In this document: piece after piece, positions 8,388 to 63,471 of the stretch | Numbering within the stretch: the stretch's first letter is position 1 | Layout: every line of letters begins with the position of its first letter | Assembly: GCF_003334765.1 (NCBI RefSeq) | Contig: NZ_QOWT01000001.1 | Strand: one strand, 5' to 3' | From: Escherichia coli | GTDB lineage: Bacteria > Pseudomonadota > Gammaproteobacteria > Enterobacterales > Enterobacteriaceae | Length of the DNA: 64,000 nt | Notes under the pieces: generated by a model | Seen by the model: the letters and a program-made list of their open reading frames with translations, nothing else | What the model was told of the DNA's origin: nothing | Database searches by the model: none | Program-made: the position numbers and the translations under genes

Positions 8388-10912
<2,525 letters not shown>

Positions 10913-23707: not shown

Positions 23708-24050
23708 GTTTTGTAACCTGTTGACTATGCTTGTTTATTATATCCGATCCCACAGCGTGGGGCATGGATGGGGCAAACTCACTCAATTTCTGGTTTAAAA
23801 TGGATACCTGATCCTGAAAGTTTTCTGCCATCCACGATCCGTAAACGCGATAACATGTTTTGTCTTCGCTTTGCTCCCAGGAAGAGTGAACTCATTCGTT
23901 AGCCTGGGGTTCCTTCTGATCATTATTGTTCCTGCCTTTATCTCTTGCCACGCCAGAGCCCCCTGGATACACATACACCAGGATGAAAACGGTGAGTTGT
24001 GTTCAAACTGTAGTACAATTCTCTCCAGTATGAACAGGAAAGAATATGCT

Positions 24051-24383
24051 ATGAACCCTTATATTTATCTTGGTGGCGCAATACTTGCAGAGGTCATTGG
24101 TACAACCTTAATGAAGTTTTCAGAGGGGTTTACACGGTTATGGCCCTCTGTTGGCACAATTATTTGCTATTGTGCATCATTCTGGTTATTAGCTCAGACG
24201 CTGGCTTATATACCTACAGGGATTGCTTATGCTATCTGGTCAGGCGTCGGTATCGTTCTGATTAGTTTGCTTTCCTGGGGATTTTTTGGTCAACGACTGG
24301 ACCTGCCAGCTATCATAGGCATGATGTTGATTTGTGCCGGTGTGTTAGTCATTAACTTGTTGTCACGAAGTGCACCGCATTAA
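24051..24383 (+). CDS. emrE: SMR-family multidrug efflux transporter EmrE
   Basis: ORF track 23871..24383; internal ATG 24051 gives 110 aa MNPYIYLGGAILAEVIGTTLMKFSEGFTRLWPSVG... with four TM segments. Confidence 0.85.
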   Translation: MNPYIYLGGAILAEVIGTTLMKFSEGFTRLWPSVGTIICYCASFWLLAQTLAYIPTGIAYAIWSGVGIVLISLLSWGFFGQRLDLPAIIGMMLICAGVLVINLLSRSAPH

Positions 24384-24551
24384 AAAATAATTATCCTTGA
24401 GATAACAGGAATCTGATTTGTGCATATTATGGCTAATGTTCGGGGCACCTTTATAATTATGATTGCATTTGCGCGATCATTGCGCCTTTATGCATAATGA
24501 GATCAAGGCACATCAAATAAAATAACGATAGGTCACAACAATGAGGTTTTT

Positions 24552-25103
24552 ATGAAAAAACTTATCGTTTCAAGTGTATTGGCATTCATAACATTTTCTG
24601 CGCAGGCCGCAGCATTTCAGGTCACTAGTAATGAAATAAAAACAGGAGAGCAACTTACAACGTCTCATGTATTTTCTGGATTTGGGTGTGAAGGTGGTAA
24701 TACATCGCCCTCATTAACCTGGTCTGGTGCTCCTGAAGGCACCAAAAGCTTTGCCGTAACTGTGTATGATCCAGATGCTCCTACAGGCAGTGGATGGTGG
24801 CACTGGACTGTTGCTAATATTCCAGCAACTGTAACATATTTGCCCGCTGATGCAGGAAGACGTGATGGTACAAAACTTCCGACTGGTGCTGTTCAAGGCC
24901 GAAATGATTTTGGTTATGCAGGATTTGGTGGAGCATGTCCTCCCAAAGGAGATAAACCCCATCATTACCAGTTTAAAGTATGGGCTCTAAAAACTGATAA
25001 AATTCCTGTGGATTCTAATTCCAGCGGAGCGTTAGTTGGTTATATGCTTAATGCCAATAAAATTGCAACCGCTGAGATAACACCAGTTTATGAGATAAAG
25101 TAG
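24552..25103 (+). CDS. ybcL: periplasmic PEBP/RKIP-family protein YbcL
   Basis: 183 aa ORF with signal peptide and PEBP-like motifs (VYDPDAP..., GDKPHHYQFKVWAL). Confidence 0.8.
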   Translation: MKKLIVSSVLAFITFSAQAAAFQVTSNEIKTGEQLTTSHVFSGFGCEGGNTSPSLTWSGAPEGTKSFAVTVYDPDAPTGSGWWHWTVANIPATVTYLPADAGRRDGTKLPTGAVQGRNDFGYAGFGGACPPKGDKPHHYQFKVWALKTDKIPVDSNSSGALVGYMLNANKIATAEITPVYEIK

Positions 25104-25112
25104 GGTAAGAGT

Positions 25113-25910
25113 ATGCTGGCAAAAGATAAGACTAACCTAAAGATTGAAGAAATACGGATGCATAAACATCATGAGATTCACAGGGTTAAGCCTCTTATGC
25201 CAGCTTTATGTCGTATCCGTCAGGGAAAAAAAGTTATCAATTGGGAGACGCATAGTCTAACTGTTGATAATAATCAGATAATATTATTTCCCTGTGGATA
25301 TGAATTTTATATTGCGAATTATCCAGAAGCAGGTCTTTATCTTGCAGAAATGCTTTATTATCCCATTGATCTAATTGAAAAGTTTCAAAAATTTTATGCG
25401 ATAACTGATCAAATTCGTAACACGACAGGTTTCTGCTTACCTCAGAACCCCGAGTTAATATATTGTTGGGAGCAACTAAAAACATCTATTTCCCGAGGCT
25501 TCTCAACGCAAATTCAGGAACACTTAGCAATGGGCGTTCTACTTTCATTAGGAGCACATCATGTTAATTGTTTACTTTTATCAGATAGTAAACAATCATT
25601 AATAAGTCGTTGTTATAACCTAATGCTATCCGAACCTGGAACAAAATGGACAGCAAACAAGGTAGCGAGATATCTCTACATTTCTGTTTCCACATTGCAT
25701 CGCCGTCTGGCAAGCGAGGGAGTAAGTTTTCAAAGTATATTGGACGACGTGAGGTTAAATAATGCGTTGTCTGCTATACAAACGACAGTAAAACCCATCA
25801 GCGAGATTGCCAGGGAAAATGGTTACAAGTGTCCTTCTCGTTTTACTGAAAGGTTCCATAATCGTTTTAAGATAACACCAAGAGAGCTAAGAAAAGCGTC
25901 CAGAGAGTAA
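25113..25910 (+). CDS. ybcM: AraC-family transcriptional regulator YbcM-like
   Basis: 265 aa ORF with C-terminal AraC-type HTH; very AT-rich. Confidence 0.75.
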
Positions 25911-26066
25911 AAGTATTTTATGAAGGAGCAACAGCATCGATTTTTATTTTGGAAAATAAATACGGCATACTCAACCTATTGGAGTCTGAACAATCCGGTG
26001 ACTTCTGCGCTAATCGGGGACGTTTCTAAGCACATATAATTGATACTATCTTCCTCCATCACAATT

Positions 26067-26591
26067 TCAGAAATGCACGTGTGATTTTTTTGCATCCGGC
26101 GTTTGGACTATGTGGAGCTCAAGAGTGGGAAAGTTACAAGAGGTTGAGGGGATAATTAAAGGGATGCTTATGACATTAGATATCCGGTTAGGTGCGGATA
26201 TCGTTGTTATTAAATCTAGTTGATACGTTAAGATGCAGCTACTGACAAAATAGCCAGGACTCCACAAAACGCCTTTGTCGTAATACCTGACTGCAATATC
26301 TGGTCGATCTCGTCGCAGTAACCTACTCGATACGCCTTTGAGGCTGTTTACCAGACTGGATATCGCCAGTTTGGGAGGATAGTTAATTAACAAATGGACG
26401 TGATCTGGTCCGCCATCCATTTCAACCCGTTCAGCTTCAAAATCAGCACATACATTTGAAAAGTAAGTGCGTAGTTTTTCTGTCGCGTCATGGTCAAAAA
26501 TCTGACGTCGGTATTTAGTAACGAAGACTAGGTGAACATGCTTCAGGAAAACACAATGCCTTCCGCGTCGGATATCGGTTTCTTTTTTCAT
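26067..26591 (-). CDS. tnpA: IS200/IS605-family transposase TnpA (HuH Y1), possibly 3'-altered
   Basis: ORF track 26067..26636; MKKETDIRRGRHCVFLKHVHLVFVTKYRR... with HuH motif HVHLL; C-terminal tail is low-complexity and longer than typical TnpA. Confidence 0.7.
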   Translation of the reverse strand: MKKETDIRRGRHCVFLKHVHLVFVTKYRRQIFDHDATEKLRTYFSNVCADFEAERVEMDGGPDHVHLLINYPPKLAISSLVNSLKGVSSRLLRRDRPDIAVRYYDKGVLWSPGYFVSSCILTYQLDLITTISAPNRISNVISIPLIIPSTSCNFPTLELHIVQTPDAKKSHVHF

Positions 26592-26905
26592 AGGCCAAAG
26601 TATGATTTGGCCCATGAAACGACTACAGGCATTCAAATTCCGGTTAAGACCAGGTGGTCAACAGGAGCGTGAAATGAGGCGCTTCGCAGGCGCATGTCGT
26701 TTCGTTTTCAATCGTGCTCTGGCGCTTCAGAATGAGAATCATGAGGCCGGTAATAAATACATCCCTTACGGGAAAATGGCTTCCTGGTTGGTTGAGTGGA
26801 AAAATGCCACTGAAACGCAATGGCTTAAAGATTCGCCCTCACAGCCATTGCAACAGTCACTGAAAGACCCTGAGCGGGCTTACAAAAACTTCTTCCGGCT
26901 TCGTC
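26067..26905. mobile_element. degenerate IS200/IS605-family insertion sequence (tnpA plus 5' fragment of tnpB)
   Basis: Divergent tnpA / tnpB start codons about 25 bp apart; tnpB homology ends after about 95 codons; exact ends not determined. Confidence 0.6.
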
Positions 26906-26943
26906 ACCACGCTCAAACGGTGTGCTACCTATCGCGGCTATAA
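26614..26943 (+). pseudogene. tnpB: TnpB (OrfB) N-terminal fragment
   Basis: ORF track 26602..26943; MKRLQAFKFRLRPGGQQEREMRRFAGACRFVFNRAL... matches TnpB N-termini for about 95 aa, then an unrelated tail and stop. Confidence 0.7.
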
Positions 26944-27322
26944 AAACAGCTTGTCCATCAGCACGATAGATAAAATAAGGCTGCTTTTTGTCGCCTTCTT
27001 TTTTCCACTCAAACCAGCCATCGGCAAAACAGATTGCCCGACCATGTTGCCAGAGCGGTTTAAACATGTGACTGGTTGCGGCAGTTTCTACGCGGGCGTT
27101 AATCAGCGGCGGTTTATCCCACCATCCGGGAGCATATCCCCAGAAAACCGGATCCAGATGAAGGTGTTCATCACGTTCACTGAGCAGAAGGACTTTGGTT
27201 CCCGGCGCGACGTTGTATCTGCCAATAGGTTCGGGATCGTAGGGAATATCGCGTTCAATATCTTCCGCGAGAAGCGCAAGGTAATCTTCACGCGTTTGGG
27301 ATTGGGCAAAGCGTCCACACAT
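26825..27322 (-). pseudogene. yedK: SOS-response associated peptidase YedK, 3'-truncated and fused to IS sequence
   Basis: 165 aa ORF MCGRFAQSQTREDYLALLAEDIERDIPYDPEP... is shorter than the 222 aa I recall for full-length YedK; its 3' part overlaps the tnpB fragment on the opposite strand. Confidence 0.7.
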
Positions 27323-30987: not shown

Positions 30988-31064
30988 TCTTCGACTCCAT
31001 TCAAGGGGAATATTAGAAGCGTAGCCGTAATCGGATTATTCGCGAGCCATCGGCTCATTAAGAT

Positions 31065-31430
31065 TCAAAAGAGGTTATCCTGCGGAGCCAGCACAAAGCC
31101 GCCCTGATCGCCATAGGCACTTAACACCGATTTTTGCACCGATGACTGACCGACCAGTTTCGCCAGTTCATCCATCCGAATCTGTAATAACTGTTTTACC
31201 TTGCTTTCGTTGTCGAGAATCAGGCGCAGCATCGGGCGGAGCTGCTCCTGCATCGTAGTGGACGGGGCAACCTCTTCAGTCAGGTGTGCGATCTCCTGCA
31301 CCGCATTCACATACGCCATTTCGCTGGCGATGAGTTCGTCCCATTGTTCTTCCGTTGCCAGGCGTAACATGAGCTGGCTTTTTTCGACGAGTTGTTGCCA
31401 GGCGAAATACAAATGCGGTGCATTGTTCAT
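31065..31430 (-). CDS. fliT: flagellar export chaperone / anti-FlhDC factor FliT
   Basis: 121 aa ORF. Confidence 0.88.
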
Positions 31431-31840
31431 CAGACTGGGTCCTGAATCAAAGAAGGGGAGAGTAAAGACTCTTTCCAGGCATCGGCAATATTGCGCATTA
31501 ATGCTTCCACTTCTTCGACTGCGGAGACATCGTTACGTAAATTGGCTTGCAGCAAGCGCCTGACCATATAGCTATAAAGAGCAATCAAGTTTTGGGTTAA
31601 TTCGTCTTTGCTATCTTCATCAAGACTCACCCGCAGTCCGTTCTCAATGATGTTGATCGCTTTTGACAAAGAGACGCCTTTGCCTTGCTGATTGTTGTCC
31701 TGCATAAACAGGCGCGCTCTAACCAGTGCGCTCAGCACTCCATCAAATAGCATGGTGACCAGCTGCTGCTGGCTGGCGCTCATTACGGCGCTTTCGACGC
31801 CAATTTGTGCATAGGCTTTTGAGCCGCTCGCGGTATACAT
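31430..31840 (-). CDS. fliS: flagellin-specific chaperone FliS
   Basis: 136 aa ORF. Confidence 0.9.
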
Positions 31841-31854
31841 GCTGACCTCCGTGA

Positions 31855-33267
31855 TCAGGAATTACTCATTGCAGTAAATTGTTGGCTGAGATAGGTACTG
31901 GTGTTATTCAGTTTGCTCATCATGGTATCTAATTGCGTAAACTGTGCAGTGTAACGCGCCACGGTGTCATCAATGCTGGCACTGACGGATAGATACTGTT
32001 TGGTCAGTTTTTTCAGTGTGGCGTTAATACTGTCCTGTGCGCTATCAATAATGCCATCATCGGCAAGGTAACCTTTTACCTCGGTGGTAATTTTGGTGGT
32101 AATTCCTGTTTCTTTACCATCGCCTACCAGCAATTCACGTACGGATGCTGTATTTTCATTCAGGACTTTTTTGAGTTTATCATCATCAATTTTCAGCTTA
32201 CCCGTCGTGCCGTCCTGCTTAATCCCGATCTCGTTTAATGTTTTGAAGGCACCGTCGCTGGCACCGTTTGCAAATTGTGCGCGGATGCCGCTTTGAATTG
32301 TACGTACAACGCTGTCTCCGAGAAGTGCACCATTATTTTTATCTTGTGCTTCAGCACCTGGGTCTACTTCTTTATATTTTGTCAGGGTGTTAAAGGTGTC
32401 AATGAGGGAGTTATATGAATCCACCCAGCCTTTAATTGCTTCGGTTGCTTTATCGTTGCTTTTTGTCACCGTGACCCGGACGTCAGTGACTTTTTTGGTC
32501 AAATCGAGAGTCACTCCCTGAGGAGCATCGGTAATTTTGTTACTTGAACGTTCAATATCGATACCGTTAACGTTTAGCTGTGCATTTTGCGCGTTAACCA
32601 GTTCCTTCATATTCCCGGTGTTGGTCTTGCTGTCATAAGCCAGCAGATCATTTAATTTACTGTCACCCTCAACAGATATGGTCATTTTATTGGCCAGACC
32701 TTCACTGGCGGTCAATACCAATTGATAGTCACCATCTTTGACTTTAACGATACTAGCGGAAATTCCACTATCGGCATCGTTAATGGCTTTGCTGATCTCA
32801 CCCAATGACGTCTGATCTTTATTGAGCTTGATTTCCAGCGGCTCTTTACGGCCGTCTTGGGTAATTTTTATTGTGCGTGTATCTGATGACTCATCACCCA
32901 GTGCATCTTTTGTTGATGCAATGATTGTCGGGGAATCAGTTCGTAAAGATTGCGCCTGCGCCAGTTGGGTTACGCTGATGGTATAGATACCGGGGGCAGC
33001 ACCTGCTTCGGTGGAAACTTTAAGGTCTTCATTGCTACTGGTAACGGTAGTGCTTTTGAACAGATCGGCTTTATTTAACGCAGTATTTGCAGTCTGGAAT
33101 TTTTCTAATGCACTTTTTAATGTGCCATAGGCTGTCAGACGTGCGGTATTGTCACTCTGTTGCTGAGTAATTGGGTTTAAGCGTTTTTTTTCAGCGATGG
33201 TCAGGTTGTTTAGCAATGTATCCAGCGGCAGATTCGAACCAACGCCAAGAGATGTAAATGAAGCCAT
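31855..33267 (-). CDS. fliD: flagellar filament cap protein FliD (divergent allele)
   Basis: ORF track 31855..33345; start at ATG 33265-33267 giving MASFTSLGVGSNLPLDTLL...; 470 aa. Confidence 0.88.
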   Translation of the reverse strand: MASFTSLGVGSNLPLDTLLNNLTIAEKKRLNPITQQQSDNTARLTAYGTLKSALEKFQTANTALNKADLFKSTTVTSSNEDLKVSTEAGAAPGIYTISVTQLAQAQSLRTDSPTIIASTKDALGDESSDTRTIKITQDGRKEPLEIKLNKDQTSLGEISKAINDADSGISASIVKVKDGDYQLVLTASEGLANKMTISVEGDSKLNDLLAYDSKTNTGNMKELVNAQNAQLNVNGIDIERSSNKITDAPQGVTLDLTKKVTDVRVTVTKSNDKATEAIKGWVDSYNSLIDTFNTLTKYKEVDPGAEAQDKNNGALLGDSVVRTIQSGIRAQFANGASDGAFKTLNEIGIKQDGTTGKLKIDDDKLKKVLNENTASVRELLVGDGKETGITTKITTEVKGYLADDGIIDSAQDSINATLKKLTKQYLSVSASIDDTVARYTAQFTQLDTMMSKLNNTSTYLSQQFTAMSNS

Positions 33268-33305
33268 ACCTAATTCCTTTTGATTGCAAACAGTAGATAA
33301 GCGGG

Positions 33306-33332
33306 TTATCGGCAATTTGTGCGCAAAGTTTA
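33306..33332 (-). promoter_or_regulatory. sigma-28 (FliA) promoter of fliDST
   Basis: Minus strand reads TAAACTTT-N11-GCCGATAA about 35 bp upstream of the fliD start. Confidence 0.7.
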
Positions 33333-33425
33333 ATAGTTGATTCACGAAGATGATGCGCAGAGTAGAGTTGTATATTACGGATATTTCAGCCGTTAAGAAA
33401 AAACAGGAGAGAAACTAAAATTTTC

Positions 33426-33452
33426 TAAAGTTCGAAATTCAGGTGCCGATAC
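33426..33452 (+). promoter_or_regulatory. sigma-28 (FliA) promoter of fliC
   Basis: TAAAGTTC-N11-GCCGATAC about 70 bp upstream of the fliC ATG. Confidence 0.7.
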
Positions 33453-33521
33453 AAGGGGTACGGTGAGAAACCGTGGGCAACAGCCCAATAACATCAAGTT
33501 GTAATTGATAAGGAAAAGATC

Positions 33522-35015
33522 ATGGCACAAGTCATTAATACAAACAGCCTGTCGCTGTTGACCCAGAATAACCTGAATAAATCTCAGTCTTCTCTGAGCT
33601 CCGCCATTGAACGTCTCTCTTCTAGCCTGCGTATTAACAGTGCTAAAGATGACGCAGCAGGTCAGGCGATTGCTAACCGTTTTACGGCAAATATTAAAGG
33701 TCTGACTCAGGCTTCCCGTAACGCGAATGATGGTATTTCTGTTGCGCAGACCACTGAAGGTGCGCTGAATGAAATTAACAACAACCTGCAGCGTATTCGT
33801 GAACTTTCTGTTCAGGCAACTAACGGTACTAACTCTGACAGTGACCTGACCTCCATCCAGTCCGAAATCCAGCAACGTCTGAGTGAAATTGACCGTGTTT
33901 CTGGTCAGACTCAGTTTAACGGCGTTAAAGTGCTGGCTTCTGATCAGGATATGACTATTCAGGTTGGTGCAAACGACGGCGAAACAATTACTATTAAACT
34001 GCAGGAAATTAATTCCGACACACTGGGATTATCTGGTTTTGGTATTAAAGATCCTACTAAATTAAAAGCCGCAACAGCTGAAACAACCTATTTTGGATCG
34101 ACAGTTAAGCTTGCTGACGCTAATACACTTGATGCAGATATTACAGCTACAGTTAAAGGCACTACGACTCCGGGCAAACGTGACGGTAATATTATGTCTG
34201 ATGCTAACGGTAAGTTGTACGTTAAAGTTGCCGGTTCAGATAAATCCCCTGAAAATGGTTATTATGAAGTTACTGTGGAGGATGATCCGACATCTCCTGA
34301 TGCAGGTAAGCTGAAGCTGGGGGCTCTAGCGGGTACCCAGCCTCAAGCAGGTAATTTAAAGGAAGTCACAACGGTGAAAGGGAAGGGGGCTATTGATGTT
34401 CAGTTGGGTACTGATACCGCAACCGCTTCTATCACAGGTGCAAAACTCTTTAAGTTAGAAGACGCTAATGGCAAAGATACTGGTTCATTTGCGTTGATTG
34501 GTGATGACGGTAAACAGTATGCAGCGAATGTTGATCAGAAAACAGGTGCAGTTTCCGTTAAAACAATGTCTTACACTGATGCTGACGGTGTCAAACACGA
34601 CAATGTTAAAGTTGAACTGGGTGGAAGCGATGGCAAAACCGAAGTTGTAACTGCAACCGATGGCAAAACTTACAGTGTTAGTGATTTACAAGGTAAGAGC
34701 CTGAAAACTGATTCTATTGCAGCAATTTCTACGCAGAAAACAGAAGATCCTTTGGCTGCTATCGATAAAGCACTGTCTCAGGTTGACTCGTTGCGTTCTA
34801 ACCTAGGTGCAATTCAAAACCGTTTCGACTCTGCCATCACCAACCTTGGCAACACCGTAAACAACCTGTCTTCTGCCCGTAGCCGTATCGAAGATGCTGA
34901 CTACGCGACCGAAGTGTCTAACATGTCTCGTGCGCAGATCCTGCAACAAGCAGGTACTTCTGTTCTGGCACAGGCTAACCAGACCACGCAGAACGTACTG
35001 TCTCTGCTGCGTTAA
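33522..35015 (+). CDS. fliC: flagellin FliC (H-antigen; variable central domain)
   Basis: 497 aa ORF MAQVINTNSLSLLTQNNLNKSQSSLSSAIERL... ...AQANQTTQNVLSLLR. Confidence 0.93.
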   Translation: MAQVINTNSLSLLTQNNLNKSQSSLSSAIERLSSSLRINSAKDDAAGQAIANRFTANIKGLTQASRNANDGISVAQTTEGALNEINNNLQRIRELSVQATNGTNSDSDLTSIQSEIQQRLSEIDRVSGQTQFNGVKVLASDQDMTIQVGANDGETITIKLQEINSDTLGLSGFGIKDPTKLKAATAETTYFGSTVKLADANTLDADITATVKGTTTPGKRDGNIMSDANGKLYVKVAGSDKSPENGYYEVTVEDDPTSPDAGKLKLGALAGTQPQAGNLKEVTTVKGKGAIDVQLGTDTATASITGAKLFKLEDANGKDTGSFALIGDDGKQYAANVDQKTGAVSVKTMSYTDADGVKHDNVKVELGGSDGKTEVVTATDGKTYSVSDLQGKSLKTDSIAAISTQKTEDPLAAIDKALSQVDSLRSNLGAIQNRFDSAITNLGNTVNNLSSARSRIEDADYATEVSNMSRAQILQQAGTSVLAQANQTTQNVLSLLR

Positions 35016-35026
35016 TCGCCGCTATA

Positions 35027-35048
35027 TTCTGCCAAACCCCGCTCCGGC
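35027..35048 (+). terminator. Rho-independent terminator of fliC
   Basis: ccccgctccggcgggg hairpin followed by tttttt. Confidence 0.75.
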
Positions 35049-35180
35049 GGGGTTTTTTCTACCCGGCAAATAGCCGTAACCCCCAAATAACCCCTCATTT
35101 CACCCACTAATCGTCCGATTAAAAACCCTGCAGAAACGGATAATCATGCCGATAACTCATATAACGCAGGGCTGTTTATC

Positions 35181-35900
35181 GTGAATTCACTCTATACCGC
35201 TGAAGGTGTAATGGATAAACACTCGCTGTGGCAGCGTTATGTCCCGCTGGTGCGTCACGAAGCATTGCGCCTGCAGGTTCGACTGCCCGCGAGCGTGGAA
35301 CTTGACGATCTGCTACAGGCGGGCGGCATTGGGTTACTTAATGCCGTCGAACGCTATGACGCTCTACAAGGAACGGCATTTACAACTTACGCAGTGCAGC
35401 GTATTCGTGGCGCTATGCTGGATGAACTTCGCAGCCGTGACTGGGTGCCGCGCAGCGTGCGTCGCAACGCGCGTGAAGTGGCACAGGCAATAGGGCAACT
35501 GGAGCAGGAACTTGGCCGCAACGCCACGGAAACTGAGGTTGCGGAACGTTTAGGGATCGATATTGCCGATTATCGCCAAATGTTGCTCGACACCAATAAC
35601 AGCCAGCTCTTCTCCTACGATGAGTGGCGCGAAGAGCACGGCGATAGCATCGAACTGGTTACTGATGATCATCAGCGAGAAAACCCGCTACAACAACTGC
35701 TGGACAGTAATCTGCGCCAGCGGGTGATGGAAGCCATCGAAACGTTGCCGGAGCGCGAAAAACTGGTATTAACCCTCTATTATCAGGAAGAGCTGAATCT
35801 CAAAGAGATTGGTGCGGTGCTGGAGGTCGGGGAATCGCGGGTCAGTCAGTTACACAGCCAGGCTATTAAACGGTTACGCACTAAACTGGGTAAGTTATAA
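35181..35900 (+). CDS. fliA: flagellar sigma factor sigma-28 FliA
   Basis: 239 aa sigma-70-family ORF. Confidence 0.93.
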   Translation: MNSLYTAEGVMDKHSLWQRYVPLVRHEALRLQVRLPASVELDDLLQAGGIGLLNAVERYDALQGTAFTTYAVQRIRGAMLDELRSRDWVPRSVRRNAREVAQAIGQLEQELGRNATETEVAERLGIDIADYRQMLLDTNNSQLFSYDEWREEHGDSIELVTDDHQRENPLQQLLDSNLRQRVMEAIETLPEREKLVLTLYYQEELNLKEIGAVLEVGESRVSQLHSQAIKRLRTKLGKL

Positions 35901-35945
35901 CGTCAGTAAATGCCGCACTTTAATTTTGACTACCAGGAGTTCTTA

Positions 35946-36497
35946 ATGATGGTGCAGCACCTGAAAAGACGGCCATTAAGCCGCTATCTTAAAGACTTTA
36001 AACACAGCCAGACCCATTGCGCGCATTGCCGTAAATTACTCGATCGCATTACCTTAGTTCGCGACGGCAAAATAGTGAATAAAATCGAGATTTCCCGCCT
36101 GGACACGCTGCTTGATGAAAATGGCTGGCAAGTGGAACAACAATCATGGGCGGCATTGTGCCGATTTTGCGGTGATTTACATTGCAAAACGCAGAGTAAT
36201 TTTTTCGATATTATCGGCTTTAAGCAATTTCTTTTTGAGCAAACTGAAATGAGCCCTGGTACGGTGCGTGAATATGTCGTTCGTCTGCGCCGTTTGGGGA
36301 ATCATCTACACGAGCAAAATATTTCCCTCGCTCAGCTGCAGGACGGTTTCCTTGATGAAATCCTCGCCCCGTGGCTGCCCACCACCAGCACCAACAATTA
36401 CCGCATCGCGTTACGGAAGTATCAACACTATCAGCGTCAAACGTGTACCGGACTTGTGCAGAAATCCTCCAGCCAACCTGCTTCTGATATATATTAA
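35946..36497 (+). CDS. fliZ: regulator FliZ
   Basis: ORF track 35910..36497; start at ATG 35946 giving MMVQHLKRRPLSRYLKDF... Confidence 0.88.
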   Translation: MMVQHLKRRPLSRYLKDFKHSQTHCAHCRKLLDRITLVRDGKIVNKIEISRLDTLLDENGWQVEQQSWAALCRFCGDLHCKTQSNFFDIIGFKQFLFEQTEMSPGTVREYVVRLRRLGNHLHEQNISLAQLQDGFLDEILAPWLPTTSTNNYRIALRKYQHYQRQTCTGLVQKSSSQPASDIY

Positions 36498-63358: not shown

Positions 63359-63386
63359 TTCTCCCGATTTCCTCAATTGAAATGAA

Positions 63387-63414
63387 CCCGATGATCTGCG
63401 CATCGGGTTTTTTA
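63387..63414 (+). terminator. Rho-independent terminator after cheW
   Basis: cccgatgatctgcgcatcggg hairpin followed by tttttta. Confidence 0.7.
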
Positions 63415-63444
63415 TTTCAATTTCGCGGCGGGTGGCATCAGCAA

Positions 63445-63471
63445 TAAAGTTTCCCCCCTCCTTGCCGATAA
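63445..63471 (+). promoter_or_regulatory. sigma-28 (FliA) promoter of tar
   Basis: Perfect TAAAGTTT-N11-GCCGATAA about 30 bp upstream of the tar ATG. Confidence 0.8.

Follow-up and report, generated by a model that had tools for sequence, protein, structure and literature searches.

How does an Escherichia coli chromosome come to carry a filament-cap gene that barely resembles the one in K-12, amid neighbors that look entirely familiar? FliD caps the flagellum at its distal end and is required for flagellin polymerization, and FliT acts as its export chaperone. We analyzed a 64,000-nt stretch of E. coli contig NZ_QOWT01000001.1 (assembly GCF_003334765.1; hereafter the window), for which the original prediction, made from the letters alone, had proposed that a divergent fliD allele was transferred together with the variable fliC as a cassette between conserved flanking genes.

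An intact fliD gene that differs from K-12 over its full length

The window is E. coli chromosome; its positions 9000–45224 are 99.91% identical to strain 2017C-4173W12. The gene order is amyA, fliT, fliS and fliD on the minus strand, followed by fliC, fliA, fliZ and tcyJ on the plus strand; all features discussed below are collected in Table 1. The mechanically called open reading frame of fliD (31855–33345; 496 aa) begins with a GTG codon. We rejected GTG 33345 as the start, since a perfect sigma-28 promoter lies downstream of it and every homologue begins with MAS. The ATG at 33267 is therefore the real start, and the protein counted from it has 470 aa and begins MASFTSLGVGSNLPLD.

The reading frame and the Pfam domains FliD_N (PF02465; residues 11–106, E = 4e-22) and FliD_C (PF07195; residues 226–455, E = 5e-67) confirmed the predicted 470-aa protein with FliD architecture. 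The Salmonella FliD structure 9gnz (9gnz_R) aligns over the full length (residues 1–469 versus 1–466; 701 bits, E = 4e-210), and the E. coli K-12 FliD structure 5h5v scores 307 bits. Furthermore, the FliT-binding segment of the FliT-FliD fusion structures 5krw and 6ch2 has its counterpart in the last 40 residues of the protein. Its genomic context is also that of FliD (HAP2): the first gene of fliD-fliS-fliT, divergent from fliC and preceded by a FliA (sigma-28) promoter. RefSeq likewise annotates the gene as fliD.

An artefact or chance reading frame was rejected, as 863 complete genomes carry the allele at an identity of at least 99%, in every case at this chromosomal locus. The gene is intact and predicted to be functional, its cap role following from homology and a dN/dS of about 0.03 (dN 0.030, dS 0.94 against L047, a contig of the Citrobacter freundii complex), and the sigma-28 promoters of fliD and fliC are both preserved; purifying selection on fliD is strong.

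Compared with K-12, FliD shows 49.8% amino acid identity by tblastn and 50.5% in a codon alignment. The K-12 N-terminus given in the original prediction, MASISSLGVGSGLDLSSILDSL, is correct, and its claim of a substantially different FliD was borne out. The divergence extends over the entire protein, with 23–76% identity per 30-residue window. The D2/D3 head is the most divergent part (23–26%), while the N-terminal coil region and the C-terminal 50 residues are the least divergent (60–76%). The surrounding proteins are highly conserved relative to K-12: FliT 98.3%, FliS 95.6%, FliA 100%, AmyA 99.6% and TcyJ 100%. The expectation of conserved fliS, fliT and fliA flanks thus held, except for the first eight codons of fliS, which fall within the divergent sequence.

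The base composition of fliD (GC 43.9%, GC3 43%) is close to that of Citrobacter fliD alleles (GC 45–46%, GC3 44–48%); K-12 fliD has a GC content of 52.4% and a GC3 of 62.8%. The divergent block as a whole is AT-richer than its flanks.

Table 1 Features of the fliD-fliC region, with positions in the window.
Feature	Position	Strand	Remarks
fliT, E. coli-type FliD chaperone	31065–31430	minus	Outside the block; 98.3% aa identity to K-12
fliS remainder, E. coli-type flagellin chaperone	31430–31805	minus	Outside the block; 97–100% nt identity to K-12
Left recombination junction	31806–31816	minus	11-nt GCCTATGCACA common to all lineages; fliS codons 9–12; E. coli-type fliS beyond
fliS codons 1–8, donor type MYTASGSK	31817–31840	minus	Putatively part of the imported block; fliS 5' alignment
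fliD, filament cap protein (HAP2)	31855–33267	minus	470 aa; Citrobacter/Salmonella-type lineage (lineage C); ORF, Pfam, homology
fliD-fliC divergent intergenic region	33268–33521		254 bp; in the block; unalignable with K-12
Sigma-28 (FliA) promoter of fliD	33306–33332	minus	TAAA-N15-GCCGATAA; 0 mismatches (pattern search); 39 bp upstream of ATG 33267
Sigma-28 promoter of fliC	33426–33452	plus	TAAAGTTCGAAATTCAGGTGCCGATAC; 1 mismatch (pattern search); 70 bp upstream of fliC ATG
fliC, type H2 flagellin (by near-identity)	33522–35015	plus	497 aa; Citrobacter/Salmonella-type conserved ends
fliC intrinsic terminator	35036–35058	plus	Citrobacter-type stem ACCCCGCTCCGGCGGGG plus T run; identical to L045, L047 and C. 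portucalensis
Right recombination junction zone	35059–35076		Multiple alignment from fliC 3' end to fliA; E. coli-type sequence resumes at GTAACCCCC (35077)

A divergent block with sharp edges and a chimeric fliS

The sliding-window comparison with K-12 that the original prediction had proposed as a check placed the drop in identity within the fliD-fliC block, with high values on both sides. Identity is 95–100% up to position 31799 and 100% from 35100. In between, it falls to 45–67% within fliD and to an apparent 50–58% in the intergenic region, with 69–82% at the 5' end and 67–75% at the 3' end of fliC (76% and 73% nucleotide identity, respectively, when the two ends are compared as a whole). 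By BLAST, the window matches K-12 at 97.4% of nucleotides as far as 31816 and at 98.7% from 35037 onward, and only fragments of 72–86% align between these points. A comparison with the O104:H4 strain gave the same left edge: the alignments to K-12 and O104:H4 both end at 31816, where a flank with five mismatches in 4936 bp relative to O104:H4 (99.9% identical) meets an unalignable fliD.

The block thus delimited measures about 3.25 kb (approximately 31817–35058) and comprises fliS codons 1–8, fliD, the intergenic sigma-28 promoters, fliC (H2) and the fliC terminator. On this evidence it reads as a clean replacement within an E. coli backbone.

At its left edge, the block ends inside fliS. The fliS product starts with MYTASGSK in the window and in O26:H11, with MYTASGTK in Citrobacter and Salmonella, and with MYAAKGTQ in K-12 and O104:H4. 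Four of the six differences between the window's FliS and that of K-12 lie in codons 3–8, inside the divergent block. FliS shares only 63% amino acid identity with Citrobacter/Salmonella FliS. The gene is therefore a chimera, with its first eight codons from the incoming block and the rest of E. coli type. FliT, encoded farther out, is 31–35% identical to the FliT proteins of Citrobacter, Salmonella and E. fergusonii.

At the right edge, the terminator stem and T run read ACCCCGCTCCGGCGGGGTTTTTT in the window and CCCCGCCACCGGCGGGG or CCCCGCTACCGGCGGGG in K-12, O104:H4 and O26:H11. No boundary repeats were found in 31000–36000, no mobility genes (IS, integrase) from amyA to fliA, and no RNA elements in an Rfam scan of the block. 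We rejected a mobile cassette or genomic island, given that the edges carry no IS, integrase or repeats and the junctions lie in homologous sequence. Accordingly, the word 'cassette' in the original prediction holds for a recombination block and fails for a mobile element. Co-transfer of fliD and fliC, its central claim, is supported by a single divergent block that has sharp edges in a typical E. coli backbone, and with the linkage found in 856 of 863 genomes (see below).

The allele groups with Citrobacter and Salmonella

We compared the window's FliD with its homologues across the Enterobacteriaceae. The closest are encoded on two contigs of the C. freundii complex, L045 and L047 (93–94% amino acid identity), whose flanks are 93% identical to C. 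portucalensis at the nucleotide level. C. portucalensis, C. tructae and C. freundii follow with 85–86%, as does one Salmonella lineage (85–86%); a second Salmonella lineage reaches 76% and E. fergusonii 72–73%. Identity to the FliD proteins of K-12 and O104:H4 is 49–51%. These two have relatives of their own: the K-12 type matches E. albertii (94–95%) and Kluyvera (82–87%), and the O104:H4 type matches Escherichia sp. E4208 (96%) and Pseudocitrobacter (89%).

In a neighbor-joining tree, Enterobacteriaceae FliD sequences fell into two deep clades, supported by 100 of 100 bootstraps. The window's lineage (lineage C) grouped with L045 and L047 in 100 of 100 replicates and with C. portucalensis, C. 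tructae and one Salmonella lineage in 98 of 100, and it never grouped with E. fergusonii (0 of 100). The window's FliD accordingly belongs to a lineage of Citrobacter/Salmonella type, to the exclusion of both the K-12/Kluyvera and the O104:H4 type.

The chaperones have a different affiliation. Compared with the Citrobacter/Salmonella type, E. coli FliS reaches about 63% identity and E. coli FliT about 32%. The whole fliC-fliDST set of E. fergusonii is of Citrobacter/Salmonella type, with a FliS of 84–87% and a FliT of 71–73% identity to that type. Since chaperones of E. coli type adjoin a fliD of Citrobacter/Salmonella type in the window, the locus is a mosaic, in which fliD and fliC derive from one lineage and fliS (from codon 9 on) and fliT from the other.

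Two candidate sources were rejected. E. fergusonii is too distant (72–73% amino acid identity) and never groups with lineage C. A recent transfer from the sampled Citrobacter or Salmonella is at odds with a best nucleotide identity of 85.5% and a dS of about 0.9. Outside E. coli, a scan of species-representative genomes returned nothing closer than 85.5% at the nucleotide level, save one contig labelled as a Collinsella metagenome-assembled genome. This contig is 99% identical to fliD and presumably represents E. coli contamination.

For fliD, dS between the window and the closest Citrobacter alleles is 0.85–0.94, and between the same organisms it amounts to 0.98 for fliA and 0.87 for tcyJ. 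The dS of fliD is thus similar to that of flanking core genes, and the allele lineage is therefore old; these values fix neither its source nor the time of its entry into E. coli. Within the species, the picture is the reverse: between the window and O26:H11, dS is 0.003 in fliD and 0.14 in amyA, so that lineage C in E. coli appears young relative to its surroundings.

Three deep fliD lineages are common in E. coli

To place the allele in the species, we used a set of 5426 complete E. coli genomes. Three deep fliD lineages exist in E. coli, and the window's allele is one of the common ones. Lineage A, the K-12 type, was present in 3189 genomes at an identity of at least 95% (about 59%). Lineage B, the O104:H4 type, which is about 73% identical to K-12 at the nucleotide level over 98% of the gene, was present in about 1320 (about 24%). 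Lineage C, the type of this window, was present in 863 genomes at an identity of at least 99% (about 16%) and was always chromosomal. A sensitive search for intermediate alleles found none between 99% and a 126-bp match at about 72%.

The association with fliC was probed with a sequence that runs from the 5' end of fliD across the intergenic region into fliC, of which it takes in the first 279 bp. This probe was covered at an identity of at least 95% in 856 genomes; hence, 856 of the 863 lineage-C genomes have their intergenic region and fliC 5' end in common.

One fliD scaffold carries several H types

The central region of the window's fliC is 99.1–100% identical in 113 genomes, including O103:H2 12009, O45:H2 and O111:H2. 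It shares 99.1% with O103:H2 12009, O45:H2 FWSEC0003 and O111:H2 12A, and 100% with NCTC9100. By near-identity to strains serotyped as H2, the flagellin is assigned to type H2. Over its full length, FliC is 85.7% identical to the FliC of the C. freundii-complex contig L045.

Lineage-C fliD is also carried by strains labelled H8, H11, H16 and H21. Comparing one locus of each of the five types, we found two to eight differences in the 1667 bp of fliD plus intergenic region and zero or one in the 254-bp intergenic region itself. In fliD alone there were two to seven differences in 1413 bp, that is, 0.14–0.50% of sites; this low diversity of lineage C is drawn from pairwise comparisons of five loci and from the 99% identity floor over the 863 genomes. 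The adjacent fliT/fliS flank differed at 7–22 of 917 bp (0.8–2.4%) in the same five loci. All five share the same fliS junction. The fliD allele is thus not specific to H2 but belongs to a scaffold shared by several H types.

Among the five types, fliC identity collapses from about 100–280 bp into the gene. As fliC diverges inside a shared fliD and intergenic scaffold, its antigenic middle would have been exchanged separately. The right junction differs between H2 and H11, the latter having an E. coli-type terminator, which argues that the locus took its present form through more than one recombination event.

Import by homologous recombination as the likely origin of the block

In our assessment it is very likely that homologous recombination brought the block into E. 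coli, with no part played by a mobile element, and that the block then spread. An old allele lineage would circulate among enteric genera, and one copy of it would have replaced the resident E. coli-type fliD-fliC, leaving the chimeric fliS. The crossovers probably took place in short conserved stretches, in fliS codons 9–12 on the left and, on the right, beyond the terminator of fliC. One founding fliD haplotype may then have spread by recombination into various E. coli backgrounds, and later exchanges of fliC, from about 100–280 bp to the 3' end, could have produced or imported H2, H8, H11, H16 and H21. The fliD gene and the fliC ends would stay linked mainly through their 254-bp spacing and through the divergence between lineages, too great for crossing over.

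Physical linkage might not be the only bond between the two genes. Selection could join fliD and the conserved ends of fliC as a compatibility unit, a proposal that accords with the near-complete linkage (856 of 863 genomes) and with FliC ends that are also of Citrobacter/Salmonella type. Chimera experiments have mapped cap-filament compatibility to the helices at the two termini of FliD (PMC8533109), regions in which the window's FliD and that of K-12 are 46–76% identical. We nevertheless consider such co-adaptation improbable as an explanation beyond linkage. FliD and FliC of E. coli and Salmonella are reported to be interchangeable (PMC8533109), and genes that lie 254 bp apart in lineages too divergent to cross over need no selection to remain together. 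Moreover, the flagellar types H2, H8, H11, H16 and H21 are defined by serology, from which we infer that E. coli-type FliT and FliS work with FliD and FliC of foreign type. The chaperones evidently serve the cap and flagellin of the other deep lineage in H-typeable strains, in agreement with the reported interchangeability. Given interchangeability and the lack of homology for crossover, physical adjacency would therefore suffice for the fliD-fliC linkage, and selection on cap-filament fit may contribute as well.

A different history would have the three fliD lineages descend vertically in Escherichia since before the split of Citrobacter and Salmonella, as an ancient balanced polymorphism in which the window's allele is a retained ancestral ortholog. 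The dS to Citrobacter (0.85–0.94), equal to that of the core genes fliA and tcyJ, would fit this history, as would the complete Citrobacter/Salmonella-type fliC-fliDST set of E. fergusonii and the Escherichia partners of the other two lineages (E. albertii, 95% identical to the K-12 type, and E4208, 96% identical to the O104:H4 type). Several observations make it very improbable, however. Lineage C varies much less than its surroundings: fliD differs at 0.14–0.50% of sites against 0.8–2.4% in the flank, with a dS of 0.003 against 0.14 in amyA. All sampled members of lineage C share one chimeric fliS junction. The allele nests among C. freundii-complex and Salmonella sequences and not with E. 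fergusonii (0 of 100 bootstraps). Finally, an old resident allele would be expected to have its own fliS and fliT, but here both are of E. coli type. Long vertical maintenance in E. coli is thus less likely than import and spread.

We give practically no credence to rapid in-situ divergence from a K-12-like fliD within E. coli under diversifying selection by immunity or phages and without any transfer: the exposed D2/D3 head is indeed the most divergent part (23–26% identity) of a surface-exposed protein reported as an adhesin (PMC5156508), but synonymous sites are saturated between the lineages, with a dN of 0.47 besides, the non-coding intergenic region is equally unalignable, the block edges are abrupt, Citrobacter alleles are 93–94% identical with a dN/dS of about 0.03 against them, and E. 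coli holds no graded alleles between 99% and about 72%.

Implications of the proposed import and spread

If the block was imported and spread as proposed, the locus offers a clean example of how an H antigen is rebuilt by recombination, with the antigenic middle of fliC having a history distinct from that of the scaffold (fliD, the promoters and the fliC ends). In practical terms, primers, antisera and vaccines based on the FliD of K-12 or O157 would miss the cap encoded in about 16% of the complete E. coli genomes, and the carriers of lineage C include the major Shiga-toxin lineages O26:H11, O103:H2 and O111:H8. Presence/absence signals for fliD in pan-genome and association studies may in fact be markers of H type or lineage.

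More tentatively, and with considerable doubt, the three cap lineages, each of which also occurs in other genera, could form a balanced polymorphism under pressure from antibodies, flagellum-dependent phages or adhesion, with fliD and the D0/D1 ends of fliC together making up compatibility classes within the species. If this were true, the 16% lineage would amount to a natural chaperone-mismatch experiment, in which E. coli-type FliT and a chimeric FliS serve FliD and FliC of Citrobacter/Salmonella type.

Comparison with known systems

The gene is a filament-cap gene of an ordinary and familiar kind, and its block is what recombination ordinarily yields at the H-antigen locus. The fliD-fliC block leaves the current understanding of flagellar assembly unchanged. 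Among the full-text papers searched, none sets out the E. coli fliD lineages or the chimeric fliS.

Within the species, the nearest reference is K-12 FliD (b1924; structure 5h5v, reported as a hexamer). It shares the locus, the presumed function and the Pfam domains with the window's FliD and is of similar length (468 versus 470 aa). In contrast, its sequence is only 50% identical and belongs to the other deep clade, together with E. albertii (95%) and Kluyvera (82–87%), and its gene has a GC3 of 63% as opposed to 43%.

The closest alleles are those of the C. freundii complex (L045, L047) and of C. portucalensis and C. tructae, which share with the window a low GC3, the terminator stem and the fliS start MYTASG. 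L045 also encodes an H2-like flagellin (85.7% identical over the full length). However, L045 and L047 reach only 85.5% nucleotide identity (dS 0.85–0.94), so neither is a direct recent donor. Their fliS and fliT are of Citrobacter type.

Salmonella enterica FliD (9gnz, 9m6i, 5h5t) aligns over its full length with the same domain layout, at 76–86% amino acid identity depending on the lineage, and the Salmonella locus has the same fliD-fliS-fliT order, transcribed divergently from fliC. Unlike in Salmonella, the window's fliD adjoins fliS and fliT of E. coli type, which encode proteins with only 63% and 32% identity to the Salmonella chaperones, and a fliB methylase gene is absent from between fliA and fliC. 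Linked evolution of fliB-fliC-fliD has been described in Salmonella, where fliC and fliD trees are congruent and form two lineages, with fliA and fliS tracking the core genome instead (PMC5744181, Front Microbiol 2017). The linked block there has the same limits as that of the window. It has been described within Salmonella, whereas the block reported here would have crossed genus-level lineages and left a chimeric fliS behind.

A more distant counterpart is found in a species with polar flagella. Both Pseudomonas aeruginosa and E. coli harbor deeply divergent cap alleles within one species, each tied to a class of flagellin. For the former, Arora et al. are said to have reported in 2000 that A-type and B-type FliD are co-inherited with a-type and b-type flagellin, respectively. 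P. aeruginosa differs in its polar flagella and glycosylation islands, while E. coli has three cap lineages and at least five H types on a single fliD.

Lineages of the fliDST operon

Between E. coli and Citrobacter, Salmonella or E. fergusonii, FliS shared only ~63% identity and FliT only 31–35% (window 31065-31840; comparison loci L003-L016 and L052, and the C. freundii-complex contigs L045 and L047). In contrast, AmyA and FliA, encoded next to fliST, retained 87–97% identity between the same organisms. From these comparisons, E. coli and E. albertii seem to carry the entire fliDST operon in a separate deep lineage, with FliD closest to that of Kluyvera, and E. fergusonii retains a Citrobacter/Salmonella-type fliDST.

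H2-like flagellin and the fliC 3′ UTR

The flagellin of the C. freundii-complex contig L045 (6237-7745; run SRR21655561) was 85.7% identical to the window H2 flagellin over its full length, rising to 98.7% at residues 94–170 and 97.8% across the last 90 residues. Judged by this sequence identity, the H2-like flagellin type is common to E. coli and Citrobacter.

Downstream of fliC, the 3′ UTR of K-12 (L001 11913-12107, compared with window 35016-35058) contains an insertion of ~155 bp with REP-like sequence, which corresponds to the annotated small RNA FliX. In the fliC 3′ UTR comparison, neither the window nor the H11, H4 and Citrobacter loci had this insertion. Because the window fliC 3′ UTR spans only ~43 nt, this locus probably yields no K-12-like FliX.

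Further features of the window and related loci

The segment near yedK at 23854-26885 could not be aligned with K-12, which carries the 3′ part of yedK, yedL, yedN and intG at the matching position. Elsewhere in the window, a second putative sigma-28 promoter (63445-63471) overlaps the Rfam C0465 match on the opposite strand. In the related locus of the O111:H8 strain 1056-1 (L049 1-1838), an IS1203 element lies inside fliZ and disrupts the gene.

Additional features of the window
Feature	Coordinates	Strand	Basis or remark
Second perfect sigma-28 promoter consensus, TAAAGTTTCCCCCCTCCTTGCCGATAA	63445-63471	+	Sequence match; putative promoter
Rfam C0465 small-RNA match	63378-63455	-	Rfam
emrE, ybcL, ybcM, IS200/IS605 transposase	23854-26885		Annotation transferred from near-identical genome NZ_CP030768.1
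Truncated yedK	ORF 26825-27322		Remnant left in the window

FliD alleles in other records

A FliD with 99% identity to the window E. coli allele is encoded on a 3.5-kb contig that carries the label “MAG: Collinsella sp.” (JAIJJM010000335.1), most likely because the bin is contaminated with E. coli. The FliD proteins of Salmonella enterica (protein matches P0012, P0034 and P0055) fell into separate lineages, with 82–85% and 76% identity to window FliD. This split among the matches agrees with a published description of two fliC-fliD lineages in Salmonella (PMC5744181).
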